Assembly: GCA_048268245.1 (NCBI GenBank) | Contig: JBLWVX010000003.1 | Span: 32,001-96,000, forward strand | Reading direction: 5' to 3' | From: Arcobacteraceae bacterium | GTDB taxonomy: Bacteria > Campylobacterota > Campylobacteria > Campylobacterales > Arcobacteraceae | Length of the DNA stretch: 64,000 nucleotides | Shown here: positions 8,484 through 33,692 of the stretch, piece by piece | Layout: each line of letters starts with the position of its first letter | Position numbering within the stretch: position 1 is the first letter of the stretch | Position numbers and translations under genes: made by a program | Notes under the pieces: generated by a model | Database searches by the model: none | Told to the model about the DNA's origin: nothing | Seen by the model: only the letters and a program-made list of their open reading frames with translations

Positions 8484-8556
8484 ATATAATCCTTTTTGAT
8501 TTTAATTATCAGAATTATAAGTGCAATACGCTTAAATTATCTTGAATGATATTTTA

Positions 8557-11609: not shown

Positions 11610-11622
11610 TTATAATACCTTC

Positions 11623-12755: not shown

Positions 12756-12788
12756 AGTTTAAACTTGAAGTTTTAGAGATATTTAGTA

Positions 12789-13169: not shown

Positions 13170-13234
13170 TCAGTTTCCTTTAGTTAATTTTAGATATTAT
13201 TATAACCTTTAAAGAATAAAACTAGGGAAAATTA

Positions 13235-13855
13235 ATGAAATTAGCTGTATTTGATTTTGATTCAACACTTATGGATGGAGAAACAATTGACTTTCTTGCA
13301 AAGCCTTTAGGATTAGAGGAAAAAGTTGCAGGAATCACTGAAAAAGCAATGGCTGGAGAGTTAGACTTTTTTGAATCTTTAATTGAAAGAGTATCTTTAC
13401 TTAAGGGTTTAGAATATTCAAAAGCTGTTGAGATTTGTAAAGATTTACCTTTAATGCCAGGTGCTTATGAAATTATTCCTGAACTTAAAAAAATGGGATA
13501 TAAGGTTGTATGTTTTTCAGGTGGGTTTAGAATAGGAACATCACCTGCTAAAGATAAACTTGGACTTGATGCAGACTTTTCAAATGTACTACATGAAAGA
13601 GATGGTATTTTAACTGGACTTGTTGGTGGAGATATGATGTTTGGATATTCAAAAGGTGATATGATTCAAAGATTACAAAATATTTTAGGTGTTTCAAAAG
13701 CTGATACTTTAGTATGTGGTGATGGTGCAAATGATTTATCAATGTTCGCTCACGCTGACACTAGAGTTGCTTTTTGTGCTAAAGAAGTATTAAAGAAAGA
13801 AGCTAATATTATAGTTGACACAAAAGATTTAACAAAAATCTTAGATAATTTATAA
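13235..13855 (+). CDS. serB: Phosphoserine phosphatase
   Basis: HAD motifs FDFDSTL, SGGF, GDGANDLSM; ITEKAMAGELDF. Confidence 0.95.
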   Translation: MKLAVFDFDSTLMDGETIDFLAKPLGLEEKVAGITEKAMAGELDFFESLIERVSLLKGLEYSKAVEICKDLPLMPGAYEIIPELKKMGYKVVCFSGGFRIGTSPAKDKLGLDADFSNVLHERDGILTGLVGGDMMFGYSKGDMIQRLQNILGVSKADTLVCGDGANDLSMFAHADTRVAFCAKEVLKKEANIIVDTKDLTKILDNL

Positions 13856-13866
13856 GGGATATAAAC

Positions 13867-16391: not shown

Positions 16392-16428
16392 AAAAAAAGG
16401 AAAGAAGTTTAACTTCTTTCCTTTTTTT
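16392..16428. terminator. Bidirectional intrinsic terminator
   Basis: aaaaaaaggaaagaagtt-t-aacttctttccttttttt between convergent genes, with A-tract and T-tract flanks. Confidence 0.85.
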
Positions 16429-16787: not shown

Positions 16788-17078
16788 CTACTCAATAATC
16801 TTTGGAACTTTAAAGTATCCATCTTCTGACTCAGGAGCATTTTTTAAAATATGATTAGATAACTCTAAATCTTGTTTTGCAACATCTTCTCTTAAAGGTG
16901 TTCCACCTTCAACAGTGCTAAATGTAGCTTCAATTTTTGATACATCAATTTCATTTAAATTTTCAACAAAGTTAATAATATCAGCTAGTTCAGATTTTAA
17001 GTTCTCTTTTCTTGACTCATCAATCTCTAAACTAGAAAGTCTTGATAATTTCTCAATTAGTTTATCATCTACAGTCAT
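16788..17078 (-). CDS. gatC: Asp/Glu-tRNA amidotransferase subunit C
   Basis: L.RLSSL, L..II.FVE.L.E.D, LREDV, NAP...DGYFKVPKIIE. Confidence 0.96.
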   Translation of the reverse strand: MTVDDKLIEKLSRLSSLEIDESRKENLKSELADIINFVENLNEIDVSKIEATFSTVEGGTPLREDVAKQDLELSNHILKNAPESEDGYFKVPKIIE

Positions 17079-17299
17079 AGTTTTCCTTATTCTTGTATAT
17101 AAAGGCGATTATATCTAAAAAGAGTTTGTAGAGGCTTTAAAGAGTAGTTATGAAAGATATATAGCTAAAATACAATAATTTTGATGATAATAAATAATAA
17201 AGTTATAAAAGTTATTTATTTAATTGTAAATAATACTTTTATGATACTTTTAAGTAATACTTAAGAATATATGTGTAACAATTACAGTAACGACATATA

Positions 17300-17375
17300 T
17301 TAGTGATAGCCAAACTTATCGTGAGGTAGGGACGGAAAGCCACGGATCTTGATGAAGATAGCCGGGTTGCATTCT
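17300..17375 (+). ncRNA. c-di-GMP-I (GEMM) riboswitch aptamer
   Basis: G-CC-AAA-C, P2 cttatc/ggtagg with GUGA (GNRA) tetraloop, GACGGAAAGC, P3 with atctt/aagat tip, ATAGCCGGGTTGC. About 80 nt upstream of the pilin ATG. Confidence 0.9.
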
Positions 17376-17454
17376 TATTTATTATTTAATTAAAATTGCA
17401 ATACTGACTACTTAACTAAAATTATTTTATACTTATCAAAACAAGGAGAACAAA

Positions 17455-17649
17455 ATGTTAGATTTCTTAAAAAGAAGATTAAAAAGTGAAAAAGGTGCAA
17501 TGGATAAAATTCTTGTAACTTTATTATTAGTTATTGTTGGTGTTGGAGCAGTTGTTGGTTTAAATACTTGGGTTGATGGTGAAAAAACAAAAGTTGAAAC
17601 AGCAGCTACAAATAAAATCACTGAAGTAACTGGTTCTACTTCTGAGTAG
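17455..17649 (+). CDS. Flp-like major pilin (non-canonical N-terminus)
   Basis: 64 aa; basic leader ending EKG, hydrophobic helix ILVTLLLVIVGVGAVVGL; AAGGAG RBS; first gene of the Tad locus. Confidence 0.85.
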   Translation: MLDFLKRRLKSEKGAMDKILVTLLLVIVGVGAVVGLNTWVDGEKTKVETAATNKITEVTGSTSE

Positions 17650-17685
17650 TATTAAGTTAAAAGGCTTATGCCTTTTACTTAATAC
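17649..17685 (+). terminator. Strong stem-loop between pilin and prepilin peptidase genes
   Basis: gtattaagt-t-aaaaggc-ttat-gcctttt-acttaatac, 16 bp with one bulge. Confidence 0.7.
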
Positions 17686-17699
17686 ATGAAAAGACAAAT

Positions 17700-18128
17700 G
17701 TGTTTACAATAATCTTTTATATATTTTCTACAGTTTTATCTTATACTGACTTCAAAAAATACTTAGTACCAAATAATATTTTACTTACTATGGCAATAAT
17801 GCTTTTAATATTTGGCTTTTTTGAATCGAAAATATATATAAGTTCTATTGTTTTATCTTTAGGTGTTCTTCTTTTTTTCATTATTCTTATGCTTATAAAT
17901 AGACAAATGATACTTGGTGGTGGAGATATAAAGTATATGATGCTTGTAGCACTATTTTTAGGACTAAAACCATTTGCTATTTTTTTGATAGTTACAGGTC
18001 TTCTTCAAAGCATAGTTTTATTATTTATGCAAAAAATAAGAAAAAGAAGAGTAGCTGCTATGGTACCAGTTATGTTTGTTTCTGTTATAATAGTAGATAT
18101 ATTAAATTATTTGAATATATTTTTGTAA
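17700..18128 (+). CDS. A24 prepilin peptidase, TadV/CpaA type (no methyltransferase domain)
   Basis: Catalytic Asp motifs YTDFKKYLVPN and GGGDIK; multiple TM helices; GTG start. Confidence 0.9.
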   Translation: MFTIIFYIFSTVLSYTDFKKYLVPNNILLTMAIMLLIFGFFESKIYISSIVLSLGVLLFFIILMLINRQMILGGGDIKYMMLVALFLGLKPFAIFLIVTGLLQSIVLLFMQKIRKRRVAAMVPVMFVSVIIVDILNYLNIFL

Positions 18129-18164
18129 AGAATATAATCTTCAAAGATAAGGTTAGGAAGAAAT

Positions 18165-19754
18165 ATGACATTAGATGATTTTAAAGATAAACTTGATTCA
18201 AATAAAGAGAATAGTATTTTAAATACGCAAATCCAAGAGGCTTTAGAACTATTTGCTGATCTTGCAAACCTAGATGATATTTCGTATTATAAGTATGAGT
18301 ATGAATATAATAATTTCTTTCATAAATTAACTATTGATAAAGATGGAAATAGACTTGAAGAAAAAAGTCATAATGAACAAAAATACAGAATAACATTGAG
18401 AAAAAATAAACTTGTATATGGATATATATCTATTAATAAGCGAATAAAATCAACTTCTATTGTAAAAAAAATTCTAAATAAACTAATAAAATATCTAGAT
18501 AAGCAAAAAGAATTAGAAAAAAAACTTTTAGGTTCTGATGTATCTTTTAATATATATTTATTTCATGATGATACTTTAGATATGTTTGCCCAAAATCTAA
18601 AAGGTGGACTAGAAGGTCTTTTTAATGTTGATGTAATTGTAGATAATTCAATTGAAAAACATATATCTTCTATTCGAAGTAAAGAGACTAAGCATATAAT
18701 TGTTTATTTAATTGATGATGAAAGAAATATCAAGAAGTATGAATCTGTAATTAAGTCATTAAATGAATTAATAATAGTTTTAGGTCCAAATGACCATAAA
18801 ATATCTATGTATTGTGGGAAACTAGGAATTCAGAACTATATTTCTATAAATGAATTTAAAGCAGAAACAATAAAAGAAATAATTCTAAATACAAGAAATG
18901 AACTTCTAAATAAAAATAAATATGGGAATAAAATTATAGCTTTAAGTGGTATTTCAGGAGGTATAGGAACTACTACTATTGGTATGAATATGTCTGATTT
19001 ACTATCACAAAATTTACCTGATAAGAATATTTTATATATTGATTTATCAACTACAAAAGCTGTTAGCAATCTATTTTTACAAAAAAATCCACTTCCTAAT
19101 AAAACTATTGTTGATTTGATTAATACAAGTGAATTTCACTTGGAAAATAATCTTCAAAATGGTTTATGTAAAGTTCGTGAAAACTTTTATTGTATTACAG
19201 GAATTCAAAAACATATAGATAAAGAGTACATAGAAAAAGATGTATTTATTAGTAAACTTTTAGAGTATGTATCAAATTCAAGTGATTATTTTAATTTTAT
19301 AATTATAGATTTAGGTTTAGCAGATGCTTCAAATCTAAAGACAACTATATATGATATTGTAAATGAAATCTGGCTTTTAACAGAAATGAATCTTCCTCAT
19401 ATTTCAAAAGTAAAAACATTTTATTCTTTAATGAAAAGAGCAGGGTTAAAGGAGAAAATATCTTTTATTGTAAACAGATATGATTCTCAAAATGCAATTT
19501 CAGTGAATGATGTAACTTCAATTTTAAATATGACAAGTGGGGACAAAATACAATTTGATAATTATAAAATCCCAAATGATTATAAAACTTTAGGTAAATG
19601 TTGGAATTACTGTGAGTTAGCAAGTGTAAGTGATAAAGACTCACTATTTATAGAGAAACTTGAAGATATTTTGAAGAAAAAAGAGTTTTATCAAAGTGAA
19701 GATAAAAAAAGAAAAGAAGGATTCTTTTCATCTTTATTTAAAAAGAGTAAATAA
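18165..19754 (+). CDS. TadZ/CpaE-like protein with extra N-terminal domain
   Basis: C-terminal MinD/ParA fold (IIALSGISGGIGTTT, LYIDL, FIIIDLG, IVNRYD, IPND); central degenerate receiver-like region; directly upstream of the ATPase. Confidence 0.82.
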   Translation: MTLDDFKDKLDSNKENSILNTQIQEALELFADLANLDDISYYKYEYEYNNFFHKLTIDKDGNRLEEKSHNEQKYRITLRKNKLVYGYISINKRIKSTSIVKKILNKLIKYLDKQKELEKKLLGSDVSFNIYLFHDDTLDMFAQNLKGGLEGLFNVDVIVDNSIEKHISSIRSKETKHIIVYLIDDERNIKKYESVIKSLNELIIVLGPNDHKISMYCGKLGIQNYISINEFKAETIKEIILNTRNELLNKNKYGNKIIALSGISGGIGTTTIGMNMSDLLSQNLPDKNILYIDLSTTKAVSNLFLQKNPLPNKTIVDLINTSEFHLENNLQNGLCKVRENFYCITGIQKHIDKEYIEKDVFISKLLEYVSNSSDYFNFIIIDLGLADASNLKTTIYDIVNEIWLLTEMNLPHISKVKTFYSLMKRAGLKEKISFIVNRYDSQNAISVNDVTSILNMTSGDKIQFDNYKIPNDYKTLGKCWNYCELASVSDKDSLFIEKLEDILKKKEFYQSEDKKRKEGFFSSLFKKSK

Positions 19755-21355
19755 TGAGAAGTTTAAGAGATTTAATTGAAGATCAAGAAAAAAATAGCAT
19801 TAGTTTAGATGATAATGTTGTTGAAGAATCTACAGAAGAAGACTCTATTCTAAAAGAGACAAAAGAAAAAATCACTAAGATAAAAAAACAAGCAGTAAAT
19901 TCTTTATTACAGTTTCCTGATATTTATACAAACAAAGAGTTATATGATTTAGCTTTACGAATAAATGATAGTTTTATGATGAACTTAAAATCTGATCAGA
20001 AGATTACAGAAGAGAATCTTGAAGAAGTATTACCTGATTATATTCAATCTTATAACAAAGAAACTAGAACTTTATCTAAAGAGTATTTAGAAGATATAAA
20101 ACAAATGATTATAAATAATATTGTAGGTTATGGTCATATATCTACAATATTTGACATTGCTAAAGATGGATTAAATGATGTAATTATAAATACAAAAGAT
20201 TATGTAGATATTATTTATAAAGGTAAAACAGAACAAACCCCTTTTACTTTTAGAAGTGAAGAAGAGCTTAGAAAAATTATAGATAAAATGCTTGCTGAAA
20301 ACAATAGAAAAATTGATGAAGCACATCCTATTATTTCAAGTAAATTAAATGATGGTTCAAGGGTAGAAGTTCAAATCCCACCAATTGCTGCAAACGGTGG
20401 AAGTTGTGTGACAATTAGAAAATTCAATGAAATACCACTTTTATTAGAAATGCTAATTGATGCAGGTCAGATGGATATGAAAATGGCATATTTTCTAGTA
20501 AAAGTTTCAAAAGGAAAATGTAATATTATTGTATCTGGTGGTACATCAAGTGGTAAAACAACTTTCTTAAATGCAATGACAAGGTTTGTTGATGGAAATG
20601 AACAACTTATGGTTATTGAAGATACAAAAGAGATGCAACCTCAAATGCCTTGCCATTCAATTAGGTCTTATGAATCAAGAATGGCAAACGAAGAGGGTAA
20701 AGGTGCTATTCCTTTAGAGTATCTTTTAAGATCAGCTCTAAGATCAAGTCCAAGAAGGATTATTGTAGGTGAGTGTAGAGGACCTGAGATTGTAACAATG
20801 TTAAATGCTATGAATACAGGTCACCCAGGTTCTATGACAACTGTTCATGCAGATAGTACAAAAGAAGCTCTTGTTAGAATTGAAAATATGTACTTAGAAG
20901 CCAGACCAAGTGCTAATATTAATTTTATTAGAACTCAAATTGTTTCAGCAGTTGATTTAATCATTCAGTTAGTTAGATTTCCAGATGGTACTAGAAAATT
21001 AGTTGCTATTTCAGAGATTGAGCGAAGAATGGAAGATAATGGAGTTGTATCTTTAAATAATATCTTTGAATTTAAAAGAGATACAAGTGATCTTAAAAAA
21101 ACAAAAGGAGAGTTTCAAACTCTATCAACTCCTACTAGAACAATAGATCAAATGAATATGTTTGGTGTAGATATTGATAAAAGAGTGTTTGATCCAAATT
21201 TTGAGATGCCTAAATCAATGCTTATCGAAGCACTTGAAACAGATTTACCATCAGTTATGTGTGGTTGGAAGGATGAGTTCCTGAAAGTGTTTATTGAAAG
21301 AGATCCTCAGCTTTTTCATAAATGGCCACATTTTTTAAAGATGAAAGAAGAGTAA
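19754..21355 (+). CDS. tadA: Tad pilus ATPase TadA/CpaF
   Basis: DGSRV, TIRKF, Walker A GGTSSGKTT, IEDT.E, IIVGECRG.E, AMNTGHPGSMTTVHA. Confidence 0.95.
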   Translation: MRSLRDLIEDQEKNSISLDDNVVEESTEEDSILKETKEKITKIKKQAVNSLLQFPDIYTNKELYDLALRINDSFMMNLKSDQKITEENLEEVLPDYIQSYNKETRTLSKEYLEDIKQMIINNIVGYGHISTIFDIAKDGLNDVIINTKDYVDIIYKGKTEQTPFTFRSEEELRKIIDKMLAENNRKIDEAHPIISSKLNDGSRVEVQIPPIAANGGSCVTIRKFNEIPLLLEMLIDAGQMDMKMAYFLVKVSKGKCNIIVSGGTSSGKTTFLNAMTRFVDGNEQLMVIEDTKEMQPQMPCHSIRSYESRMANEEGKGAIPLEYLLRSALRSSPRRIIVGECRGPEIVTMLNAMNTGHPGSMTTVHADSTKEALVRIENMYLEARPSANINFIRTQIVSAVDLIIQLVRFPDGTRKLVAISEIERRMEDNGVVSLNNIFEFKRDTSDLKKTKGEFQTLSTPTRTIDQMNMFGVDIDKRVFDPNFEMPKSMLIEALETDLPSVMCGWKDEFLKVFIERDPQLFHKWPHFLKMKEE

Positions 21356-21358
21356 ATT

Positions 21359-22285
21359 ATGAGTAATTTAGTTCTATTTTTTATCATAGTAATTCCTATA
21401 CTATTTATAAGTTTTGCTTTTTATTTATACTCATTTTATGTGAAAATGAATCAGCAAAAAGTGATAATAAATACTTTAGTAAATACAAATAGTAAAATCC
21501 TAGATAATAATAGAAATGATAATGTATTCGAAGATGATACAAATTTTTTAAGAAAGAAACTTAGATTTGCAGGCTTCTCTACTCAAGGTGCTGAGTATGT
21601 TTTTTTACTTATTTGTATTGGTTTTGGACTTTTAACAAGCTTTTTTATTTTTTTAATAGCAAGTTCTAAGATCATATTTGTATGTACATTTTTTATATTT
21701 ATGGGCTTTCCTTATTTGGTTTTAGTAAATATTATAAAAGCTAGACAAGAAGAGTTTAACTTTGCATTAAAAGAGATTATTGATAAAGTTACTAGTATGA
21801 TGAGAAGTGGTGTAGGTTTTGAGCAAGCTTTAAAAAAATCAATCCTTACTTCAAAATCAAAACTTGCACAAAAAGTTCTAGGTATTTATATAAATGAAAA
21901 ATCAGTTATAGGTGAAGATAAATGTTTTGAGAAGATGTTTAAACTTATTGAGTCTAAAGAACTTAGAATTTTTTATCTTACAATTTCAATTGGTAGAAAA
22001 TCAGGTGGTAAGTTTTCAAATACTTTAGAAAAACTAAGAAAAACACTACATGACCAAGGGGAAATAAAACAAGAAATTACATCTTCAACAAAAGAGATAA
22101 AAGTGGGTACTTATATGATTATAGGGCTTATTATTTTTACATATATTATGATGAATAGTGCATTAAATGATTCTTTAAATGCTCACTTTTTTGGTAGTGA
22201 TACAGGTAAAATCCAAATGTTTTTTATTATTGTTTGGATTTCTTTTGGACTATTTGTAAATAGCTTATTAACAAAGATAAAATGA
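21359..22285 (+). CDS. tadB: Tad inner-membrane platform protein TadB
   Basis: T2SSF-like features (MRSGVGFEQAL, GGKFS..L); follows tadA. Confidence 0.87.
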   Translation: MSNLVLFFIIVIPILFISFAFYLYSFYVKMNQQKVIINTLVNTNSKILDNNRNDNVFEDDTNFLRKKLRFAGFSTQGAEYVFLLICIGFGLLTSFFIFLIASSKIIFVCTFFIFMGFPYLVLVNIIKARQEEFNFALKEIIDKVTSMMRSGVGFEQALKKSILTSKSKLAQKVLGIYINEKSVIGEDKCFEKMFKLIESKELRIFYLTISIGRKSGGKFSNTLEKLRKTLHDQGEIKQEITSSTKEIKVGTYMIIGLIIFTYIMMNSALNDSLNAHFFGSDTGKIQMFFIIVWISFGLFVNSLLTKIK

Positions 22286-23127
22286 TGGATAAAACACTTA
22301 TTGTATTTATACTAGCACCAATGTTAATAGCAGTAGCCATAATTGCAACAGTGCTAATACTTCAGAGAAAGAAACAGCAAAGAAATATTGTACTTCTTTC
22401 AAAGTTAGATAATAAAGCAATTATAGAAGAGCAAAAAAAAGGCGAAAATAAAAGTAATGATAGTTTGAATATGCAATTAATTCAAGCAGGAATTACTTAT
22501 AAAGAGTATACAGAAGCAAGACTTCTTTTTGCTTTGATTGGAATAATTATAATGGGAGTTCTACCATTTTTCTTCTCTTTTATAGTTGGAGTAATTAGTG
22601 TAATTGTAGGTATTTTATGTATTGCATTTGGAGGAAAGTTTTATTTATCAATTGCAAAGGCAGAGAGAATTGAAAAAATTGATAAAGATTTAGGGATTTT
22701 TCTTGATTTAGTAAATGTAATTCTTGAAGCAGGAGGAAGTTTAAAAAATGCCTTTTTTGAAGTTTCTAAAAGAGCCCATGGAATTATTGATGAAGAGTTA
22801 CTAAAAGAAATCTCTATTTTAGAGTACGAAATGACAAATTACTCTACAAAAGTAGCCTATGAAAATCTTAAAAATAGGGTCGATAGTAGACAACTTGATA
22901 AAATAGTGGATTTTTTGATACTTAGTGAAGAGACAGGTATTGGAGTAAAAAACATTTTTACAATGCAATCAGATGAAATGAGAAAAGAAAAGTTCTATAA
23001 AATAAAAGGGAAGGTTAATACTTTAAATATGTATTTGATGCTGATTATTTTCCTTTTTGTTTTACCAGCATTTGGAGCATTTATTGTTTTCCCTATTATG
23101 GGTGGAACACTAACAATTGGAATATAA
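22282..23127 (+). CDS. tadC: Tad inner-membrane platform protein TadC
   Basis: FLDLV...LEAG.SL..A, SEETG, LFVLPA. Confidence 0.88.
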   Translation: MMDKTLIVFILAPMLIAVAIIATVLILQRKKQQRNIVLLSKLDNKAIIEEQKKGENKSNDSLNMQLIQAGITYKEYTEARLLFALIGIIIMGVLPFFFSFIVGVISVIVGILCIAFGGKFYLSIAKAERIEKIDKDLGIFLDLVNVILEAGGSLKNAFFEVSKRAHGIIDEELLKEISILEYEMTNYSTKVAYENLKNRVDSRQLDKIVDFLILSEETGIGVKNIFTMQSDEMRKEKFYKIKGKVNTLNMYLMLIIFLFVLPAFGAFIVFPIMGGTLTIGI

Positions 23128-23145
23128 ATTTAATAAGGATTTTAC

Positions 23146-24351
23146 ATGCAAGCTAACAAACAAATAATTATAATACTAATACTAGCCTCGCTACTATTTT
23201 CAGCACTTGGGGCTGCTTTTTATTTTTTTAAAAAGAATAAACAAGCCCAAAAGAGTAATAATGAACTTGTCACAATTTATATTGCAAAAGCTGATATAAA
23301 AAAAGGAACATTAATTACTGTAGATCAAATGGCCCAAACTAAAATAGCAAAACAATTCTTATTAAATAAACCATTGATGAAAAAAGAGATTATTGGAAAA
23401 TATACTAGTGAAAAAATCTTTAAAAATGAGATGTTCTTAAAACAAAAACTATCAACACAAATTGAGAAAGAAAGAGCTAAAGTTCTTGATTTTACTAGCA
23501 GTAGTTACAACATGAAGTTTGATATGTTTGATAACCCCAATTATACTTTAGTTCAAGGGGATTTTATAAATATCATATCTGTTCTTCCAAAGGGAAAACC
23601 TGATAATAAAGGTAAATATTCAGATTTTGATGTTCAATATATAGCAAATAATATTAAAGTTTTAGGATTTATTAAAGATGGTGTAAATGAGTCTTCAAGT
23701 ATTACAAAAGAAAAAATTAAAAAAGTAATAAAGAAAAAAGTTGTAGAAGAAATAGTAAATATAAAAGCAAATGAAATGATACTTGATATAGATCCAAATG
23801 TTTTGATTTCACTTATTAAAGATTATAATAAAGGAAATCAATTATGGATGGTAAAAACTAAAGAGTCTATTCAGATTAAACCACTTGATGAAATGACAAA
23901 AGAAGAAACAAAAGAGTTTAAAAAAGAAATAAAAGAACCTTTATCAAAAGAAAATAAAAAAGTAAAAAAAGTATATAAGCCAAAGGTTTATAAGTACCAA
24001 TGGTATAAATCAAAGGTTAATACTATTACTAAAAGTGCAGTAATTGATTATACAAATGATAAAGGTGATAGTAAAACTAAAAAAAGAAGTGTAGAAATAA
24101 AAGTTGATTCACAAAGGATATGTAACTCTATAAAAGATAAGTTTATTATAGGAACATCTGCAAGGTTTTATATAAGAAATGAGCCAACAACTAGATCAAG
24201 TAAAAAAAGTATCTTAGAAAAAAATACAATTATTCCTTATGTTGAAAAATTAGACACTTGGTATAGGACTTGTGATGGACAGTTTGTAAGTTCAAAAGTT
24301 GCAAATGAGATTTCATATTCAAATGCAGTAAAAAAAGCAGGTAAAAGATGA
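23146..24351 (+). CDS. RcpC/CpaB-like protein (TM-SAF-RcpC) with C-terminal SH3-like domain
   Basis: N-terminal TM; SAF motif IYIAKADIKKGTLIT; LVQGDFINII, NIKVLG; tail YIRNEPTTRS...WYRT.DG.FVSS. Confidence 0.8.
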   Translation: MQANKQIIIILILASLLFSALGAAFYFFKKNKQAQKSNNELVTIYIAKADIKKGTLITVDQMAQTKIAKQFLLNKPLMKKEIIGKYTSEKIFKNEMFLKQKLSTQIEKERAKVLDFTSSSYNMKFDMFDNPNYTLVQGDFINIISVLPKGKPDNKGKYSDFDVQYIANNIKVLGFIKDGVNESSSITKEKIKKVIKKKVVEEIVNIKANEMILDIDPNVLISLIKDYNKGNQLWMVKTKESIQIKPLDEMTKEETKEFKKEIKEPLSKENKKVKKVYKPKVYKYQWYKSKVNTITKSAVIDYTNDKGDSKTKKRSVEIKVDSQRICNSIKDKFIIGTSARFYIRNEPTTRSSKKSILEKNTIIPYVEKLDTWYRTCDGQFVSSKVANEISYSNAVKKAGKR

Positions 24352-24791
24352 AAAATCAAACAGTAAAAAATAAACCTAATTTAAAAGATGCTGTAGTAGA
24401 GCAAATCATTTTATGGATTGTTATATTTATATCTTTTGTAAGTATTTTATTTTTTATTATTGATTATTCAAATGCACTAAAAGCTAGTGAAAATGCAGAT
24501 TCAATTGCTAATTACACAGCAAGAATGGTAGCACTAAATGAATCGGAAAGTGATATTGCTGATGGTATTAATAGAATAAAAGGTGATTATGTACAAGCAG
24601 TTACAACAGCTGGTATTTCTTGTACAGAAGATACAACTGATGCAAGTAGACAAGTAATAGTAAATGTATCTGGAACACTACCAAATAATATTATTCTAAC
24701 AGGAAGTAATAATATAAACTCAAAAGCAGTAGTTTATAATGAAAGTAGTGAATATAAAAAAGAGTGTAGTATAGCACTTAGCTTTAACTAG
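24348..24791 (+). CDS. TadE/F-like minor pilin
   Basis: Basic leader, hydrophobic helix, then A...A..TARMVAL; two Cys; inside the Tad operon. Confidence 0.7.
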   Translation: MKNQTVKNKPNLKDAVVEQIILWIVIFISFVSILFFIIDYSNALKASENADSIANYTARMVALNESESDIADGINRIKGDYVQAVTTAGISCTEDTTDASRQVIVNVSGTLPNNIILTGSNNINSKAVVYNESSEYKKECSIALSFN

Positions 24792-24800
24792 GAGAGAGTT

Positions 24801-26285
24801 ATGAAAGTAGTATTAAAAAGTTTATTTATTTTATGTATATTTTTAAGTATAGGAAATACAAATGAGCTTATAAGTAAAAATTTACATGATAAAAACATAT
24901 CCGTAAGCAAAGGTTCATTTAAAGTCTTTGAGTTTAAAAAGATGATTAAGAATATAAAAGTAAGTGATGAGTCTATGATAGATGTAGACTTTTTAGAAAA
25001 TAGTGAAAAGCCTTTGCAGGCTATAAAAGTGTTTACTAAAAAACTTGGAAATGGAAATATCCTAGTTACTTTCTATGACTCAAGTTCATTACATATAAAT
25101 ATAAATATCACTGAAAATTTAAATACTATAGTTGAAGTTGCAAATATAATAAGTCCTAAGTTAAAAGTAAAACAAACTAATGGAAAAGTAATCTTAAGTG
25201 GAAGTGTAAAGAATCAAAAACAAAAAGATAAGATTTTAGACTTATTTAAAAAAGCAGGTGTGAATCTAGAGACTGATTTAGTTGATTTAGCTACACTTGA
25301 AAATCCAGATAAGATGGTAAGAATCAAGCTTTATGCAGTTGAAGTAAATAATGATAAAGGGCTTACAATAAAGAATAATTGGTTTAGTTCAGGTAAGAAC
25401 TATATTCAAAATATTAATGATGAAGGACTTTATTATAATACTCCTTTGGATTATTCTGGAAGTACTCAAGAATATAGCGATGCAAATAATCAAAGAAATA
25501 TTTTAGTACATGATGCAATTGATAATCTTATGAAAGATGCAGTATCTCTAACAGGTGGATTAACTGGTGCTGCTAATGTATTAGGTAAATATTTTAATGT
25601 AGGAGTTACTTTAAACTACTTATCTTCAAAAGGTGTAGCTGAGGTTTTAGATGAAACAACACTTTTAACATTAGAAAACCAAGAAGCAGATTTTTTAGCA
25701 GGTGGAACTTTAAATATAAGAACACAAACTACAACTTCTCAAGGTGTACCATCAACTGAATTAAAAGAGATAAAGTATGGTTTACAACTTAATATAAAAG
25801 CTAAAAATATTGTAGATGATAAGTTTATAAAACTAAATATTGTTACAAAATCAAGTAGTGCAGATTTTGCAAATACAGTAGATGGAATCCCAAATATTAC
25901 AGAGAAATCAATCACTACAAATGTAGTAGTAGCAAATAAATCTACTATTGTTTTAGGTGGTTTAATAAATAGAAAAAATGCAAGTGATATAGAAAAAATA
26001 CCATTACTTGGGGATATTCCAGTATTAGGGTTTCTATTTACAAGTAAAGCTTTTAAAGAAGGGAAAAGTGAGCTAGTGTTTTTTATTACACCTGAAATAG
26101 TTGATCCAAAAGCAAACAACCAACAGCAAGAGTTCTTACAAAAAACAACATTTACAAAAGCCATAGATGAAAAATTTGAAAATGATAAAAAAGAAGTAGA
26201 GAAAGAAAAAAATAAAAGTTTTAATAAAAAAGAAGACTCACAAAGCTTACATGAGCAAAGAGTAAAAGAGATTTTAGGATATTAA
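24801..26285 (+). CDS. rcpA: Tad secretin RcpA/CpaC
   Basis: Signal peptide, Ig-like N domain, BON-like segment (VILSGSV), A.FLAGG, YGLQL, IPLLGDIPVLGFLF, ELVFFITP. Confidence 0.92.
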   Translation: MKVVLKSLFILCIFLSIGNTNELISKNLHDKNISVSKGSFKVFEFKKMIKNIKVSDESMIDVDFLENSEKPLQAIKVFTKKLGNGNILVTFYDSSSLHININITENLNTIVEVANIISPKLKVKQTNGKVILSGSVKNQKQKDKILDLFKKAGVNLETDLVDLATLENPDKMVRIKLYAVEVNNDKGLTIKNNWFSSGKNYIQNINDEGLYYNTPLDYSGSTQEYSDANNQRNILVHDAIDNLMKDAVSLTGGLTGAANVLGKYFNVGVTLNYLSSKGVAEVLDETTLLTLENQEADFLAGGTLNIRTQTTTSQGVPSTELKEIKYGLQLNIKAKNIVDDKFIKLNIVTKSSSADFANTVDGIPNITEKSITTNVVVANKSTIVLGGLINRKNASDIEKIPLLGDIPVLGFLFTSKAFKEGKSELVFFITPEIVDPKANNQQQEFLQKTTFTKAIDEKFENDKKEVEKEKNKSFNKKEDSQSLHEQRVKEILGY

Positions 26286-26294
26286 AAAAAGAGC

Positions 26295-27434
<1,140 letters not shown>

Positions 27435-27459
27435 TTAAAATTTCGCAATTATATCTAAA

Positions 27460-27942
27460 TTATGTTGATAGTTTTTCTTCTAGTTGTTTTTTTAAACTTT
27501 CATTCTCTTCTTTTAGAGTTTTGATTTTTAAAAGTAGTTCTTTTCTCTCATTTGCAGGTTCAATTGCTTTAGATATTGATATAATAATATTTCTAATATC
27601 AATTGGTTTGATTATGTAAGAGGTGATTCCAAGTTCTATTGCTTGTTTTAAGTAGCTTATATCTTGATGGGCAGTTGTGATTAAAACAGGAACATCTTTA
27701 TTGATTTTTTTTATTTCTTCAATCATTTCTAAGCCATCCATGTTAGGCATGGAAAGGTCTGTAACTATAATATCAATTTCTTCTTGATTCTCTATGAACT
27801 TTTCTAAACCATCCTTCCCATCAACTGCAGGGATAATCTTGGCATTTACAAGTTCTAATGTTACTATAGTATTTTGCTGTATAGCATTATCATCTTCTAC
27901 GTATAAAACTGTTATGTCTTTTAACATTTGTTCATTAATCAT
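27460..27942 (-). CDS. Response regulator: receiver domain plus short coiled coil, no DNA-binding domain
   Basis: VEDD, D.SMP.MDG, TAH, KP motifs; leucine-zipper-like tail. Confidence 0.92.
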   Translation of the reverse strand: MINEQMLKDITVLYVEDDNAIQQNTIVTLELVNAKIIPAVDGKDGLEKFIENQEEIDIIVTDLSMPNMDGLEMIEEIKKINKDVPVLITTAHQDISYLKQAIELGITSYIIKPIDIRNIIISISKAIEPANERKELLLKIKTLKEENESLKKQLEEKLST

Positions 27943-28066
27943 TATATTTAGGCCTCTTTTGATAACTTATAGTATCTATAGTTGGATAAAAAAGTTATTA
28001 AATCTTGCTTTTATTAATATTATTTAATTTTAGATATAATGATAAATATTTACACAAAGGTCATAA

Positions 28067-29467
28067 ATGAAATTACTTTTAGTTTTTATTCTAAGTATTA
28101 GTTTTTTATACTCAAAAGAGCTTAAATCAATCACACTAGAAGAAGCAATTCAAATAGCTTTAGAAAACAATAAAAGAAATAAAGTGTCTAAACTAGCTTT
28201 AGAAGTTGCAAATGCACAATATAACCAAGCATTAAGTGCAAACTATCCAACTATAAATGCAATGTTGGTTGGTATTAGAAAAGATGAAAATCCTATTTAT
28301 CAGCAAAGAGGTGAATTTACATTACCAGATGGATTAAAAAATTTGTTAGAAGGTTTAGCTAGTGCACAGGCAGGTCAGCAAGTAACTATTGACCCTACAA
28401 TTCCAGCAAATATGAATACAACAAGTTACGGTAGAGATATAGTAAAAGGTTCAATTAATGTACAATACCCAGTTTATACAGGTGGAAAAATCTCAGCTAT
28501 CATTGAGCAAGCTAAACTAAACAAACAAATTGCTTTTAATGCTATGAAAAGAGAAGAAGAGAGTGTTGTATTTGATACTAAGAAATACTTTTATGGATAT
28601 GTATTAACAAATGAGTTACATAAAATTGCTAAAGACTCTTATGAGAGAATGCAGTTTATTTCAGATTTGACTAAAAAGTTTTATGAAAGTGGTGAGTCTT
28701 TAACTGTTAAAAAAACTGATTATTTATCAGTTCAAGTTACAGTTACATTAATAGAATCAATTGTTTCAAAACTTGAAGCAAACAAAAATCTTGTAAAATC
28801 AGCTTTAATTAACTCTATGGGTTTATCATGGGATAGTGATATAAATATCTCATATACAAATAGATTAGTTCCTCCAAATTACACTCTTGCAAAATTAGTT
28901 GAAAAAGCATACTCTTCAAATAAAGATATAAATGAAATAGATATAGCTTTAAAGGTTACAAAAGAGCAAATAAAAGAGAAAAAAGCCGGACATTATCCTA
29001 CTTTAGCTTTTATGGGTGAAGTTTCAAGAACTTATAACTCATATGAGTATGGTTTTTTAAATGAAGACCAAAGAAATAGATGGAATATAGGTTTTGCAGC
29101 AAACTTACCACTATTTGATGGGTTTAAAACTACAAGTGAAGTAGAAGAAAAAATTGCTGAAAAAAAGAAAATGTATCTAATAAGAGATATGTTAAAAGAT
29201 GCAGTAGCTATGCAAGTTAAAAATGAGTTAACAAATGCACTGATTGGTTTTAAACAAATCAAAACACTTAAAAAAGCAAAAGAACTTGCTAAAGATAGTA
29301 GAGAATTAAATATAAGAGCTTATCAAATTGAAGCAGTTGAGCCAAAAGATGTAGTTCAAGCTCAATATATTGAAGCTTATGTAAAAGCAGATTATTTAAA
29401 ATATGTACATGATTATTTAATCTCATTAGCAAAAATTGATAAACTAGTTGGAAAAGAGTTAAAATAA
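28067..29467 (+). CDS. TolC-family outer-membrane protein
   Basis: Signal peptide; ITLEEAIQIALENN; two OEP repeats (YPT..., PVYTGG / PLFDG); L.KLVG end. Confidence 0.92.
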   Translation: MKLLLVFILSISFLYSKELKSITLEEAIQIALENNKRNKVSKLALEVANAQYNQALSANYPTINAMLVGIRKDENPIYQQRGEFTLPDGLKNLLEGLASAQAGQQVTIDPTIPANMNTTSYGRDIVKGSINVQYPVYTGGKISAIIEQAKLNKQIAFNAMKREEESVVFDTKKYFYGYVLTNELHKIAKDSYERMQFISDLTKKFYESGESLTVKKTDYLSVQVTVTLIESIVSKLEANKNLVKSALINSMGLSWDSDINISYTNRLVPPNYTLAKLVEKAYSSNKDINEIDIALKVTKEQIKEKKAGHYPTLAFMGEVSRTYNSYEYGFLNEDQRNRWNIGFAANLPLFDGFKTTSEVEEKIAEKKKMYLIRDMLKDAVAMQVKNELTNALIGFKQIKTLKKAKELAKDSRELNIRAYQIEAVEPKDVVQAQYIEAYVKADYLKYVHDYLISLAKIDKLVGKELK

Positions 29468-29468
29468 T

Positions 29469-31106
29469 ATGGAAACAAATTACAGTAAAAATAAGCTATT
29501 TAAAAAAGTATATGTTCTTCTTTTTTTAGGAATCACATTGATTACTATTATTTTTGCTGCAATTGGAGTGTCTTTACAGAAAAAAGCAGTTTTAGAACTT
29601 ATGCAGTCAGAAGCTAAAAGTTTAGCTCAATCTATTACTTTTGTAATCTCTAAATCTTTGTTAATTGATGATGATTCATCAATTATTGATTTTAATAAAC
29701 AATACATAAAAAAAGCAGATAAAGTTAAAAATATAATAATTTCAAAATCAAATGGAAAAGATTACTTTATAATTAGAAAAGAGTCTTGGGAACATAGACA
29801 AAATATTAGTGAAACCTTTACAAATATGCAAAAGAATATACCTACAAACTCTATGATTTATTCAGCATTTTTAAATGAAGAAGTTTTTCATTATGTATAT
29901 CCTATGCAAATATCAGGAATTACATGGGGTTGGCTTCATATTAGTTTAGATTTAAAGAAATATTATGAAAAGTTAGAACATCTTTATGCTCAATATTTAG
30001 TACTGTTTTTATCTTTTACATTTTTAGCTTTTGTAATTTCTTTTTATATAGCTAGAACTTTTGTTAGACCTATTGTAGAACTTAATAAAACAGTATCTCA
30101 AGTAAGCTCTGATAATTTAGATGTTATAAAAGTTGATAATGTTAGTAATGATGAGGTAGGAGAGTTAACGAAAGCTTTTAACTCGATGATTTCACAGTTA
30201 AGTATCTCTCAAAAAAGTCTTAAAAAATACCAAGCAGATTTAGAAAAAAGAGTACAAGAAAGAACAGCTGATTTAGAAAAAGCAAACAAAAGTTTAAATG
30301 AAAAATCAGAACAACTAGAAGAGTTAAATAGAAACCTTGATACAAAAGTAAAAAAAGAGATTGAGAAAAGAAAAGAGCAAGAAGAAATGCTTTTACAGCA
30401 ATCAAGACTTGCTGCAATGGGTGAAATGGTAGGAAATATTGCTCACCAATGGAGACAACCTTTAAATGCTTTAGGAATTATTATTCAAAATATTGATTTA
30501 TCTTATAAAATAGGTAAATTAAATGAAGAGTTTATGAAAAAATCAATTGATGAGTCTTTAGATTTAACTACTATGATGTCAAAAACTATTGATGATTTTA
30601 GAAATTTCTTTATACCAAATAAGAAAAAAGAGAATTTTTTACTTCATGAGAGTTTAAATAGCTCATTAGAGTTAATTGGTTCTACATTTAAAAACTATAA
30701 TATTAGTGTGAAAAGAGATATTGACAAAGGCTTAGAGGTTTTTGGTTTTCCAAATGAGTTTGCTCAAGCTTTACTAAATATTTTGTCAAATGCAAAAGAT
30801 GCTTTAATCGAAAAAAGAGTTGCTAAACCTGAAGTTTGTGTGAAGCTAAAAAAATATGAAGACATAGGAAAAATATTTATAAGTGATAATGCTGGTGGAA
30901 TAGATGATGAAGTAATGCTTAAAATATTTGAACCATATTTCACTACAAAAGAGCAAGGGAAAGGTACAGGAATTGGTCTTTATATGTCAAAAATGATTAT
31001 TGAACAAAATATGAAAGGTAAAATTTATGCTAGAAATATAGATAATGGTGTAAGTTTTATAATTGAAATACCTTTAAAACAAAAAGATGAAGGAAAAACT
31101 ATTTAA
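29469..31106 (+). CDS. Sensor histidine kinase (2 TM, periplasmic sensor, HAMP, HisKA, HATPase)
   Basis: DEVGEL..AFNSM (HAMP), IAHQWRQPL, N.LSNA.DA, DNAGGI, FEPYFTTK, GTGIGL. Confidence 0.95.
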   Translation: METNYSKNKLFKKVYVLLFLGITLITIIFAAIGVSLQKKAVLELMQSEAKSLAQSITFVISKSLLIDDDSSIIDFNKQYIKKADKVKNIIISKSNGKDYFIIRKESWEHRQNISETFTNMQKNIPTNSMIYSAFLNEEVFHYVYPMQISGITWGWLHISLDLKKYYEKLEHLYAQYLVLFLSFTFLAFVISFYIARTFVRPIVELNKTVSQVSSDNLDVIKVDNVSNDEVGELTKAFNSMISQLSISQKSLKKYQADLEKRVQERTADLEKANKSLNEKSEQLEELNRNLDTKVKKEIEKRKEQEEMLLQQSRLAAMGEMVGNIAHQWRQPLNALGIIIQNIDLSYKIGKLNEEFMKKSIDESLDLTTMMSKTIDDFRNFFIPNKKKENFLLHESLNSSLELIGSTFKNYNISVKRDIDKGLEVFGFPNEFAQALLNILSNAKDALIEKRVAKPEVCVKLKKYEDIGKIFISDNAGGIDDEVMLKIFEPYFTTKEQGKGTGIGLYMSKMIIEQNMKGKIYARNIDNGVSFIIEIPLKQKDEGKTI

Positions 31107-32070
31107 TTAGTTTTACTGTATCTTTTGTTTTAGTTCCTATAATTTTTAGTTGAAATTCAAATTGATCATAATCACCATTAATTTTTTTATATGTTGTACT
31201 TGGATTTGCTAAAAGTTCAACTTCTATGAATTTATTAATCAATAGATTATCAGCTGTACTTCCACACTCAAATAGTGCCATGTGCATTCTCGCACCTGTT
31301 AAATCGTAAGAGTTTTCTAAATTTTTAAAAGATTGACTTATTTGTTTTGGGTCATTATTTTGTTCCTTTGTTAAAGAATCAACCATAGGAACACAAAAGT
31401 CATTATATATATCTGTATCTAAAACCGACTGATCATTTCTTATAAAACCATCATCAGTATAAAAATATTTTATATCATTTTTAAAGTGTGACCAATTTGA
31501 ATTCCCTGATGCGGTACAAGCATTTCCTAAATCAACTCCATAAAATTCATCATAATCTGTATCTGTATATCCTCTATGACCACTTAAATTAAATGTTATT
31601 ATATTGCCTTTAAATAAATGTGAATTATCACATCCATTTATTCCAAATGGTGATAAGTCTGATGTCTCTGTTAAGTCTGCTATTATTGCTACAGAGCTTG
31701 TACTTAAATCAAAGCTTGCTAAATCAAGGAATTTATACCAAAAAGTTTCATGTGTGTAATTTGGAAGTGAAACTGTTACTGTATAAGGGTCAGATATAAA
31801 ATCCCAAGTATATGTGATTTCATCTTTTATTTGTGCACCTAATGGAGTTTGAGCTAGTATATCATTTGCAATAGTTTCAGCATTAGTTGTATCCATATCA
31901 ACATCAATATAGTACTTTGCAGCACTTAATGCAGCATTATCTGTTAAAGCTTTAAGCTTATAATATTTATTTCTAGCTTCAATATCATCTAGTATAGTCG
32001 CACCTATAATTATAAGGGTTGCAAAAAGAAAAATCCCTAACATAATTTGATCAATAAATGCTTTTTTCAT
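31099..32070 (-). CDS. TadG-like pilus protein (candidate tip adhesin)
   Basis: MKKA-F leader, hydrophobic helix, L..LTDNAALSAA (Tad domain motif), C-terminal domain with four Cys. Confidence 0.75.
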   Translation of the reverse strand: MKKAFIDQIMLGIFLFATLIIIGATILDDIEARNKYYKLKALTDNAALSAAKYYIDVDMDTTNAETIANDILAQTPLGAQIKDEITYTWDFISDPYTVTVSLPNYTHETFWYKFLDLASFDLSTSSVAIIADLTETSDLSPFGINGCDNSHLFKGNIITFNLSGHRGYTDTDYDEFYGVDLGNACTASGNSNWSHFKNDIKYFYTDDGFIRNDQSVLDTDIYNDFCVPMVDSLTKEQNNDPKQISQSFKNLENSYDLTGARMHMALFECGSTADNLLINKFIEVELLANPSTTYKKINGDYDQFEFQLKIIGTKTKDTVKLIK

Positions 32071-32258
32071 GACTATCCTTTCTTTATATATTATAGCATA
32101 TAATTATTGATTTTCTAAATATTCTAATCTATTTGATTTGTTATAAATAACTTAAGTAAAGTCATAAAAACAGAATAAATAAGTATAAATAATTTTTAGT
32201 AAAGATGATGAGTTTTTATTAAAATCTACTATTAATTTAATTAAGATATAATATCAAA

Positions 32259-33692
32259 ATGAAAAAGATATTGATAATTTTAGACGGTATTGTTGCTAAG
32301 AAATTGATGCATAGAATTGTTGAAGCTAACACAAATGAAAATGCATATGATGTAATTTACATGAGTGATTTAATACTACCTGTTCAAAAGCCTTCAAACT
32401 TTACTTTTTATAAATTTGATCCAACTTCAAAATCTAAATTATCTATGGTTTTAGATAAAAATATTCATACAGAAGTTTTAATTGCACTTAATTCAAAAGA
32501 TGAGATGATAAGTGTAATAAAAAACATTAAAGAACATAAACAAAATCTTCAAATGAATGTTCTTGACTATTGGGGTTTAGAAGTAGATGATCCTTATGTA
32601 AATATTTATAAAGGTATTGAAGTTTTAGCAAATGGAATGGTTGAAAGACTACCGAATATTCCCATTGTTGCCCAAAATATTGGTCTTAAGCAAGGTGAAA
32701 TAATGGAGATTCGAATTCCATTTGGTAGTTCTTATGCTTATAGATATATAGGTTCAATTGAGCAAAAAAAATGGAAAATTTTTGCTTTATATAGAAACCA
32801 ACAACTTCTTACTATTAAACCCTCACTTGTACTAAAACCAAATGATGTGATTTTAGTAGTTGGTAAACCTTATGTTTTAATGCAAGTATTCAATGCAATT
32901 GGTAAAAACCAAGGGCAATTCCCTATGCCGTTTGGACATAATATTTATTTATATTTAGATTTATATTTACAAACAGAACAGAGTGTAAGAAAAGCTATTT
33001 TAGAAGCTAAATTTTTGAATCAAAGATTAAAAAATAGAAATTTAATAGTAAGAATCACAAGACCTACAACTGTTGGTATTATGAACTTCATCAAAGATGA
33101 ATTAAGACATTTTCCTTCAATTACATTAAGAATTGATTATGGGAATATGGGAATCTTTAAAATACTAAGAGAAGATTTTAGAAAATATGATATAGGTATG
33201 ATTATTTTAACTCAAGAGATGTTCAAAAATAAAGAAGCAATATCTAGTTTAATTGATTTTAAAGTACCTATTTTTAAACTAGGAAAAGAGAAGTTAAAAT
33301 CTGTAAAAAGTACAGTAGTAGTTTTAAATGATACTCCATCTTATGAGCAAATATCTCCTATGGTTTTTGATGTGGCAAGTCAAGTAAAAACAAAAACAAA
33401 AATTTTTGATTTAGACCCAGTTGGTGAAGAAGAAGATAAATCAAATCTTTTAGACCATTTTGAGAATCTTGCGAAAATTTTTAATGAAAAAGTTGAGATT
33501 ATTTCAAGTAGTGAGAACCCAATAAGAAAACTAAAAAAACAAAAAAATATGCTTCAAATTTTACCATTGAAAAAAGAGATGTTTAAAAAAAGGTTCTCTT
33601 TTAAGTATATTTATACAAATTCAGACTTTATATCGTTTGATATGAACCAATATAATCAACTTCTAATTCCAGTTGTTGAAGAGCAAAATTAA
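32259..33692 (+). CDS. COG3400-type protein with TrkA-C (RCK_C) domain
   Basis: AQNIGL.QGEIME..IPFGSSYAYR, ND.ILVVG.P, GQFP.PFG. Confidence 0.8.
   Translation: MKKILIILDGIVAKKLMHRIVEANTNENAYDVIYMSDLILPVQKPSNFTFYKFDPTSKSKLSMVLDKNIHTEVLIALNSKDEMISVIKNIKEHKQNLQMNVLDYWGLEVDDPYVNIYKGIEVLANGMVERLPNIPIVAQNIGLKQGEIMEIRIPFGSSYAYRYIGSIEQKKWKIFALYRNQQLLTIKPSLVLKPNDVILVVGKPYVLMQVFNAIGKNQGQFPMPFGHNIYLYLDLYLQTEQSVRKAILEAKFLNQRLKNRNLIVRITRPTTVGIMNFIKDELRHFPSITLRIDYGNMGIFKILREDFRKYDIGMIILTQEMFKNKEAISSLIDFKVPIFKLGKEKLKSVKSTVVVLNDTPSYEQISPMVFDVASQVKTKTKIFDLDPVGEEEDKSNLLDHFENLAKIFNEKVEIISSSENPIRKLKKQKNMLQILPLKKEMFKKRFSFKYIYTNSDFISFDMNQYNQLLIPVVEEQN

Follow-up and report, generated by a model that had tools for sequence, protein, structure and literature searches.

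Organization of the Tad locus

We analysed a 64,000-nucleotide stretch of the genome of an Arcobacteraceae bacterium (contig JBLWVX010000003.1, positions 32,001 to 96,000; the window), which carries, between the genes gatC (16788-17078, minus strand) and tgt (26295-27428, minus strand), a block of genes related to those of Tad (type IVc) pili. Genes were called from the listing of open reading frames (ORFs) and from Pfam matches, family models were also taken from NCBIfam, and RNA elements were identified with Rfam. The results point to a complete pilus machine that belongs to a divergent clade of Tad systems.

Nine co-oriented genes, all on the plus strand, fill the gatC-tgt interval. The first encodes a pilin of 64 aa (17455-17649) and is followed by genes for a TadV/CpaA-type prepilin peptidase (17700-18128), a TadZ/CpaE-like, ParA-like protein of 529 aa (18165-19754), a TadA/CpaF ATPase of 533 aa (19754-21355; T2SSE, E 1e-44), the platform proteins TadB (21359-22285) and TadC (22282-23127), an RcpC/CpaB-like (SAF) protein of 401 aa (23146-24351), a TadE-like pseudopilin candidate of 147 aa (24348-24791) and a secretin of 494 aa in the RcpA/CpaC role (24801-26285). 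Three of the junctions overlap (at 19754, 22282-22285 and 24348-24351), and the GC content, 0.24-0.31 across the window, shows no compositional break at the block. A c-di-GMP-I (GEMM-I) riboswitch aptamer lies in front of the pilin gene, and a tenth gene, encoding a TadG-like minor pilin or adhesin candidate of 323 aa, is displaced to 31099-32070 on the minus strand.

An earlier, sequence-only reading of the window had listed this co-oriented block between gatC and tgt with all its ORFs intact, rcpC and the secretin gene downstream from tadC, no recognisable TadD or RcpB gene, and a riboswitch at its head. The gene list was confirmed by the ORF calls, Pfam and fold matches, and the position of rcpC and the secretin gene by the locus map. 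All reading frames are unbroken, with lengths that agree with those of relatives. The lack of TadD and RcpB holds for the locus, as the block contains no further ORF; no search with models of TadD or RcpB was made beyond it. The riboswitch was found with a score well above its threshold (see below).

TadA defines a clade of the Arcobacter-type family and one sister family

Orthologues of TadA sharing at least 68% identity with the window protein were found in 60 of 184 genomes of the Arcobacter-type family, in 13 of its 22 genera. Their spread within the family is patchy: 8 of 44 genomes in genus g2, 19 of 25 in genus g10. When the phylum was surveyed with an even sample of 401 genomes, the long form of TadA (55-59% identical, about 520 aa) occurred outside the family only in the sister family f7 (5 of 34 genomes). 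Other Campylobacterota yielded a CpaF of about 430 aa, 36-42% identical, in families f2 (6 of 118 genomes) and f3 (2 of 158). Among 1.84 billion representatives at 50% identity a single close full-length TadA was retrieved (P0001, 64%), all others being at most 44% identical, and named plasmid CpaFs reached at most 43%.

A FastTree phylogeny of 103 rows was rooted at the midpoint; it kept 85 representatives of 400-640 aa, which carry no taxon labels, and left out rows made of several stretches or fragments (P0002-P0010, P0012 and P0013). Seven Arcobacter-type rows, four f7 rows and P0001 formed one clade with support 100, on a stem of 1.80 substitutions per site, against a median of 0.72 for the tips. 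The Photobacterium CpaF was joined, with support 99, by the four TadA rows from canonical Campylobacterota loci. The lineage-specific Tad subtype that had been proposed from the sequence, with TadA phylogeny named as a check, is supported by both the identities outside the clade and this tree, in which the clade stands apart from the canonical Campylobacterota Tad ATPases. The Tad loci of f2 and f3 represent a separate Tad lineage.

Stretches of 20 kb around the TadA orthologues were collected and the window proteins were mapped onto them. The order pilin, peptidase, (TadG-like), tadZ, tadA, tadB, tadC, rcpC, pseudopilin, secretin is shared by the window and 13 related loci, and a partial locus (L035) agrees as far as it is covered. 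In the f7 loci the pilin gene comes after the secretin gene and other genes stand between the peptidase gene and tadZ. The tadZABC-rcpC-pseudopilin-secretin order, together with a pilin that has an Flp-like leader and no Glu5-Tyr6, is specific to the clade; an extra N-terminal TadZ domain and an RcpC-SH3b fusion, both from the models described below, are further features within the Arcobacter-type family.

Two of the related loci showed irregularities. In L026 about 1.6 kb (11480-13133) separates tadB from tadC, which starts at about residue 25 of the window protein; this gap may be an insertion into the operon. The tadB (8136-8762, minus strand) and rcpC-like (6130-6921, minus strand) frames of L024 are short, 208 and 263 aa, in a genome listed as 81% complete, and could result from frameshifts or assembly errors.

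The assembly machinery

Compared with solved structures, TadA scored 239 bits with CpaF, 110 with archaeal GspE/FlaI and 88 with VirB11, and in the tree it falls among the CpaF-family representatives. Its ATPase motifs are intact; the Walker A motif, read from the sequence, is GGTSSGKTT. The platform is encoded by two adjacent genes, tadB and tadC, each with a single T2SSF domain (E 6.6e-08 and 5.6e-08). The peptidase, of 142 aa, consists of an A24 domain only (Peptidase_A24, E 2.7e-13, profile positions 1-103 of 104), with no methyltransferase domain.

By sequence alone the TadZ-like protein gave weak matches to Pfam AAA_31/CbiA. It was modelled with AlphaFold2 from 13 sequences (pLDDT 77.9), and the model shows three domains: an alpha-beta4-alpha domain (residues 1-121), a receiver-like domain (128-249) and a ParA-like domain (256-505). 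The best Foldseek match was the two-domain structure 3fkq (E 2e-12, 405 columns), which we take to be TadZ of Eubacterium rectale. Model and match together give the receiver plus ParA/MinD-like architecture of TadZ. For the fold of the N-terminal domain (1-121) Foldseek gave no identification, the list being dominated by ParA matches. The TadZ of the sister family is 397 aa long and aligns only from about residue 161-178 of the window protein; the extra N-terminal domain is an addition of the Arcobacter-type family.

The secretin matched the Pfam Secretin (E 4.5e-40) and BON (E 2.3e-05) models and scored 68.7 bits with the solved RcpA 8odn, PilQ and GspD scoring similarly. Its partner, the RcpC-like protein, is the weaker of the two assignments. 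The protein scored 25.8 bits with TIGR03177, below the cut-off; its model (pLDDT 67.8 overall, 80-94 in the SH3b part) had as best Foldseek match RcpC 9gzr, from the Tad alignment complex (E 1e-3, prob 1.0). The last 70 or so residues (about 330-400), which follow a lysine-rich linker, matched the SH3b domains 2krs (TMt 0.65) and 9ovi (TMt 0.70). In an alignment, the sister-family RcpC, of about 300 aa, stops short of the linker and the SH3b domain. SH3b domains usually bind peptidoglycan, and it is an attractive idea that, where no TadD or RcpB is recognisable, the domain may anchor the alignment complex to the cell wall. In L030 the RcpC-like protein (12657-14087, plus strand) has 476 aa and carries the C-terminal SH3b-like domain in two copies.

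Pilin and pseudopilin candidate

The first 37 residues of the pilin are almost invariant across the Arcobacter-type family. In an alignment with three annotated Flp pilins the Gly of the cleavage site was invariant and the basic/acidic leader in register; the prepilin would be cut after Gly14. The residues after Gly differ: (V/A)TAIEY in the Flp pilins, AMDKIL in the Arcobacter-type pilin and MSGVLV in f7. If Gly14 is the site of cleavage, an acidic residue occupies position +3 (AMD, read from the sequence). The pilin has homologues in 373 clusters, and none of the 120 clusters listed holds a precomputed Pfam domain. The homologues that carry a name come from Poseidonibacter, Arcobacter and Aliarcobacter and are annotated as 'hypothetical protein'; a single JGI record uses the name Flp.

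The 147-aa protein carries at its N-terminus the motif KDA-VVEQI and a transmembrane helix, features in common with the pilin and the 323-aa protein; read from the sequence, and on the same assumption about cleavage, both larger proteins have an acidic residue at +3 after Ala (VVE and FID, respectively). The neighbours of the 147-aa protein in the ESM Atlas were annotated 'pilus assembly protein' (0.95), and one cluster, at 0.93, had TadE in 37% of its members. This is the only small pseudopilin gene in the block.

Pilin genes were also observed in other settings. L029 contains two tandem pilin genes. In the window's genome an orphan paralogue, also of 64 aa and 40% identical, lies far from the operon (L053 4060-4254, plus strand, equal to G000:C2:148559-148753), between a gene for a 181-aa protein and one for a putative lipoprotein of 450 aa, with no riboswitch nearby. 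Its leader ends in KNQKG followed by AIENILV, with the acidic residue again at +3 (AIE, read from the sequence).

The displaced TadG-like gene

The sequence-only reading had assigned to the system a TadG-like gene 5 kb away, and comparison with related loci supported this. Of the 10 loci compared within the family, 9 (L023-L031) carry their homologue of the 323-aa gene inside the operon, between the genes for the peptidase and TadZ. On this ground the displaced gene is part of the Tad system. The ESM Atlas neighbours of the protein were PF13400 Tad clusters (score 0.96, 25 of 30 matches). In L022, from the window's own genus and with a TadA 98% identical, the gene is likewise elsewhere and the peptidase and tadZ genes are about 20 nt apart, as in the window. 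In L023 the homologue is inside the operon and the same response regulator, TolC-like and kinase genes follow tgt. The gene is single-copy in the genome and is preceded, 20 nt upstream, by an extended -10-like sequence (TGnTATAAT), which is a consensus match only.

An alignment of the family showed a conserved N-terminal part of about 135 aa and a hypervariable remainder. Homologues of about 795 aa occur in L028 (12267-14660, minus strand) and L029 (4852-7236, plus strand), and a scan of the L029 protein found Big_9, He_PIG and Cadherin-like domains. The family has, by sequence, the anatomy of a pilin-anchored adhesin and may act as one.

A c-di-GMP-I riboswitch precedes the pilin gene

The aptamer of a cyclic di-GMP (c-di-GMP) riboswitch of class I was identified at 17299-17374 on the plus strand (RF01051, 58.1 bits against a gathering score of 35, model positions 1-87). 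The nucleotides of the ligand pocket, presumably contacting c-di-GMP at G20, A47 and C92 in Vc2 numbering, are canonical in the window and in 12 of 12 leaders: a G ahead of the GC pair, an A following GGACGG, and GC beyond the second helix. The variant c-di-GMP-I-GGC (RF03167) was considered as well. It scored 57.5 bits in the window, against a cut-off of 59, and 59.7-61.2 in L022-L024, yet at its defining position 37, where the consensus has G, the window (GGACGG-A-AAGCC) and all 12 leaders read A; for this reason the variant was rejected.

RF01051 gave 84 matches in 51 of 151 family genomes. In 13 of the 151 it lies 2.4-5 kb upstream from tadA on the same strand and contig, L024 being a fourteenth case. 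In five Tad-bearing genomes (G181, G086, G103, G105 and G134) all matches lie on the contig of tadA, but at least 100 kb from the gene. The genome contains 44 GGDEF matches, so the ligand should be available, and the element is predicted from its sequence to bind c-di-GMP and change expression. The link between this riboswitch and Tad genes has been known since 2007, when Weinberg et al. included cpaA in their table of gene families under GEMM control (Table 2; PMC1950547). The riboswitch is genuine but ordinary.

A second c-di-GMP-I riboswitch (62.8 bits) was observed elsewhere in the genome (L049 6078-6155, minus strand, equal to G000:C5:32577-32654), just downstream from a gene of the TetR family. 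Opposite it lies the 3' end of an AAA/DUF2201 operon that runs convergently. On the strand of the riboswitch the sole downstream ORF, of 64 aa, is contained within the opposing gene, so the switch may be orphaned or act in antisense.

Expression platform and direction of the switch

A candidate expression platform extends over 17355-17413 (plus strand), where the 3' strand of the aptamer, AAGAUAGCCGGGUUGCA, can pair with a downstream complement, UUGCAAUACUGACUACUU. RNAduplex gave -11.2 kcal/mol for the two window strands, compared with -5.5±1.6 for shuffles. A downstream complement of the aptamer 3' strand was present 5-47 nt away in 9 of 12 leaders, and in 7 of the 12 the duplex energy was 3.1-4.1 standard deviations below mononucleotide shuffles. 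By inspection, compensatory changes keep the hairpin in L042 (GUUGUA/UACAAC) and L046 (UACAAAA/UUUUGUA). Alignment of nine leaders with MAFFT left the 3' partner out of register.

As the alternative hairpin uses nucleotides of the aptamer, ligand binding should block it; provided that the hairpin halts expression, the element would be an ON switch. Our estimate leans towards this direction, c-di-GMP turning the operon on. Several results speak against it. The complement was weaker in 2 of the 12 leaders and not significant in 3; the window hairpin folded alone was no better than shuffles (z -0.38, 57 of 200), so that in this genome the argument for it comes from the duplex test and from relatives; and no canonical terminator was found in the leader. 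Clear U-rich tails were present only in L041 and L047.

The reverse, an OFF switch in which bound c-di-GMP frees the complement to mask the ribosome-binding region or to promote termination, so that pili are made at low c-di-GMP, is possible but not what we would expect. By inspection, the freed 3' partner (CUACUU/CUAUCU) is partly complementary to the Shine-Dalgarno region (AAGGAG/GGAGAUA), and the lack of a clean terminator after the alternative hairpin would also suit it. The length of the leader after the aptamer, however, varies from 33 to 222 nt, which fits poorly with a fixed pairing to the Shine-Dalgarno sequence; a run of U7 follows the hairpin in L047, and in L030 a separate hairpin with a U run comes directly after the aptamer. 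Moreover, high c-di-GMP generally favours adhesins.

Between the pilin and peptidase genes a stem-loop (17649-17686, plus strand; -19.9 kcal/mol, z -5.0) folded better than all of 200 shuffles and is not followed by a U tract. Stem-loops after the pilin gene were also seen by eye in L042 and L046. The element probably separates expression of the pilin from that of the machinery.

No sequencing run contained as much as half of the words searched. Four runs were compared with the window; contigs from one of them, an oyster metatranscriptome, were identical to tadZ/tadA at 18251-18421, 20369-20550 and 20656-20906. A fourth contig links the end of the aptamer with the beginning of the pilin gene by way of another leader, of 102 nt, and thus comes from a relative. 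Contigs of an RNA library do not show transcription, and no conclusion about expression or habitat was drawn from them.

Neighbouring features

Beyond tgt, the region 27460-31106 contains a response regulator gene (minus strand), a TolC-like gene and a HAMP histidine kinase gene, a trio that also follows tgt in L022 and L023. As far as can be told, the stretch from tgt to the histidine kinase gene (26295-31106) holds unrelated neighbours and not parts of the pilus system. Consensus scans of the leader and of 26000-32400 found promoter-like sites no more often than in shuffles, and no terminators. A perfect 15-bp hairpin after the DAHP synthase gene (16395-16425) is probably a terminator; a miRNA model matched it by chance (27.7 bits, with a threshold of 70). 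L026 has a match to the Guanidine-II riboswitch (3862-3904, minus strand; 37.5 bits, with a gathering score of 32) some 2 kb away from its Tad operon.

Discussion

The block probably encodes a Tad-type pilus machine that is complete and functional. The clade to which it belongs is divergent and, within the searches made here, restricted to the Arcobacter-type family and a single sister family. The machinery corresponds in its sequences to that of the Tad family, while the pilin departs from the Flp motif. In the mechanism we propose, the short prepilin would be cut after Gly14 by the A24 peptidase, and TadA, on the TadB/TadC platform, would polymerise it. TadZ would position the machine, the RcpC-like protein and the secretin would form the outer-membrane conduit, and in the Arcobacter-type family the SH3b domain of RcpC may tie this conduit to peptidoglycan. 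The TadE-like protein and the TadG-like protein, with its variable C-terminus, might prime or tip the fibre. When c-di-GMP locks the aptamer the alternative hairpin would be blocked and the pilin operon expressed, giving pili in the sessile, high-c-di-GMP state. The stem-loop that follows the pilin gene probably keeps the amount of pilin high relative to that of the machinery.

A number of results count against this interpretation. The locus has neither a gene for a pilotin (TadD) nor one for RcpB. No component gave an NCBIfam match above cut-off. The mature pilin N-terminus, AMDKILV, is without Glu5-Tyr6 and so differs from the G/XXXXEY pattern; no Pfam or NCBIfam pilin family matched the 64-aa pilin at E ≤5, and a Flp_Fap search of the whole genome found no match, the best having E 0.54. 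The fold match of the 401-aa protein to 9gzr is borderline (TM 0.37 on the target), and no Pfam or NCBIfam model, Pfam TadE and Tad included, matched the 147-aa protein above noise, nor did any match the 323-aa protein. The RcpC-, TadE- and TadG-like calls, drawn from a borderline fold match and from language-model neighbours, are leads only. RF01051 did not reach its gathering score in 6 of 11 Arcobacter-type loci (L025-L029 and L031) or in any of the 4 f7 loci; being present in only some loci, the riboswitch is treated here as accessory and not as part of the definition of the subtype.

The same deviations could be read as signs of a decaying or non-assembling remnant, given the locus without TadD or RcpB, the altered pilin N-terminus and the NCBIfam scores. 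We think this very unlikely: all ten genes are open and agree in length with their counterparts from 13 genera, the N-terminal part of the pilin hardly varies, the ATPase motifs are intact, and the deviations are common to the whole clade, which argues for a design that works and not for decay. Harder still to credit is an ordinary, canonical Tad locus made odd by AT-rich drift. Unusual composition was flagged for the window TadA and for 5 of the 6 other Arcobacter-type rows, and this can lengthen branches. Canonical-order Campylobacterota loci exist, however, and their TadA groups with the Photobacterium CpaF and not with this clade; nor are the N-terminal domain of TadZ, the SH3b domain and the gene order effects of composition.

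As to function, the filament might serve DNA uptake or secretion rather than mainly adhesion, since Tad-type pili are described as driving transformation in Micrococcus luteus (PMC4322843, PMC6370729). The Ig/cadherin-type adhesin domains of the L029 TadG-like component, the hypervariable C-terminus of this family, as expected of a binding module, and control by c-di-GMP, which fits attachment, make such a role improbable as the main one. Surface attachment or biofilm, as proposed in the sequence-only reading, is the putative function.

A bolder proposal, which we put forward tentatively, is that of a distinct, unnamed Tad-derived filament subtype in Arcobacter-type Campylobacterota. It would have given up Glu5-Tyr6, with an acidic residue at +3 in the major pilin, the orphan paralogue, the pseudopilin candidate and the TadG-like protein; it may have an SH3b tie to the wall in place of pilotin and RcpB, and an exchangeable tip adhesin of 323 to about 800 aa, with Ig/cadherin modules in some species. 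Pilus detectors in standard use may under-call such a system, whose pilin and minor components have no matching family model. It might even be the main attachment organelle of these host- and biofilm-associated bacteria.

Bacteria of the Arcobacter family live attached, on animals and shellfish, in sewage biofilms and on marine surfaces; emerging food-borne pathogens are among them. In the literature searched, none of their pili has been characterised. The locus is a candidate for their attachment organelle and occurs in roughly one of every three species genomes examined. For work on type IV filaments it offers a natural Tad variant whose pilin lacks Glu5-Tyr6, an RcpC-SH3b fusion where no pilotin is recognisable, and a TadG-like protein with a swappable C-terminal module. 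Campylobacter and Helicobacter, the best-studied members of the phylum, are said to have little c-di-GMP signalling; the riboswitch offers a simple, testable link between c-di-GMP and a pilus in Campylobacterota.

The sequence-only reading had also held that Tad pili are not a characterised feature of Campylobacterota, and the literature gave only a passing genomic mention: a TAD pilus cluster is stated for the genome of a Sulfurospirillum epibiont (PMC10470745), and another paper mentions only FlpA of C. jejuni (PMC9952011). The literature searched contained nothing on the present system or its riboswitch and no study devoted to the Tad pili of Arcobacter or of any other member of the phylum; the distribution figure and supplementary tables of Denise et al. 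(10.1101/576694) and Table S3 of PMC10470745 may include such systems.

Comparison with known systems

The best fold matches of the 529-aa and 401-aa proteins were to known Tad components, 3fkq and 9gzr, from which they differ by the 120-residue extra N-terminal domain of the former and the C-terminal linker and SH3b domain of the latter. The type example of the c-di-GMP-I riboswitch is Vc2 of Vibrio cholerae. The element of the window resembles GEMM-I in its full-length match, its canonical pocket and its position in the leader of a pilus operon, as listed in 2007; it differs in that the platform is not a canonical terminator and that only some loci of the clade have the switch.

The f2 and f3 loci (L036-L039) are from the same phylum and have a CpaF-type ATPase and a secretin in common with the window. 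Their TadA, however, is only 39-42% identical and 422-439 aa long, and their secretin gene is upstream from tadA, in the canonical order. Gene order alone would be weak evidence of novelty, since local permutations of gene order have already been described for Tad loci (10.1101/576694); the same work treats TadD and RcpB as accessory in its TFF-SF model. The locus of S. meliloti pSymA shows yet another permutation.

The canonical Tad/Cpa loci are tad of Aggregatibacter and cpa of Caulobacter. Those compared here were from Photobacterium damselae plasmid pdp3 (L050) and the Ralstonia solanacearum megaplasmid (L051). Like them, the window has a small pilin with a Gly cleavage site, a short A24 peptidase, RcpC/CpaB, a secretin, TadZ, a CpaF-type ATPase, TadB and TadC, together with candidate pseudopilin-type proteins. 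The window TadA is 35.0% identical to the Photobacterium CpaF and 37.0% to that of Ralstonia, and has 533 aa where those of the canonical loci have about 430-450. In the canonical loci rcpC and the secretin gene precede tadZ, whereas here they follow tadC. The pilin of the window is without Glu5-Tyr6 and without a Flp_Fap match, and the locus without TadD and RcpB and with a single small pseudopilin candidate; its TadZ, by contrast, carries an extra N-terminal domain and its RcpC is fused to SH3b.

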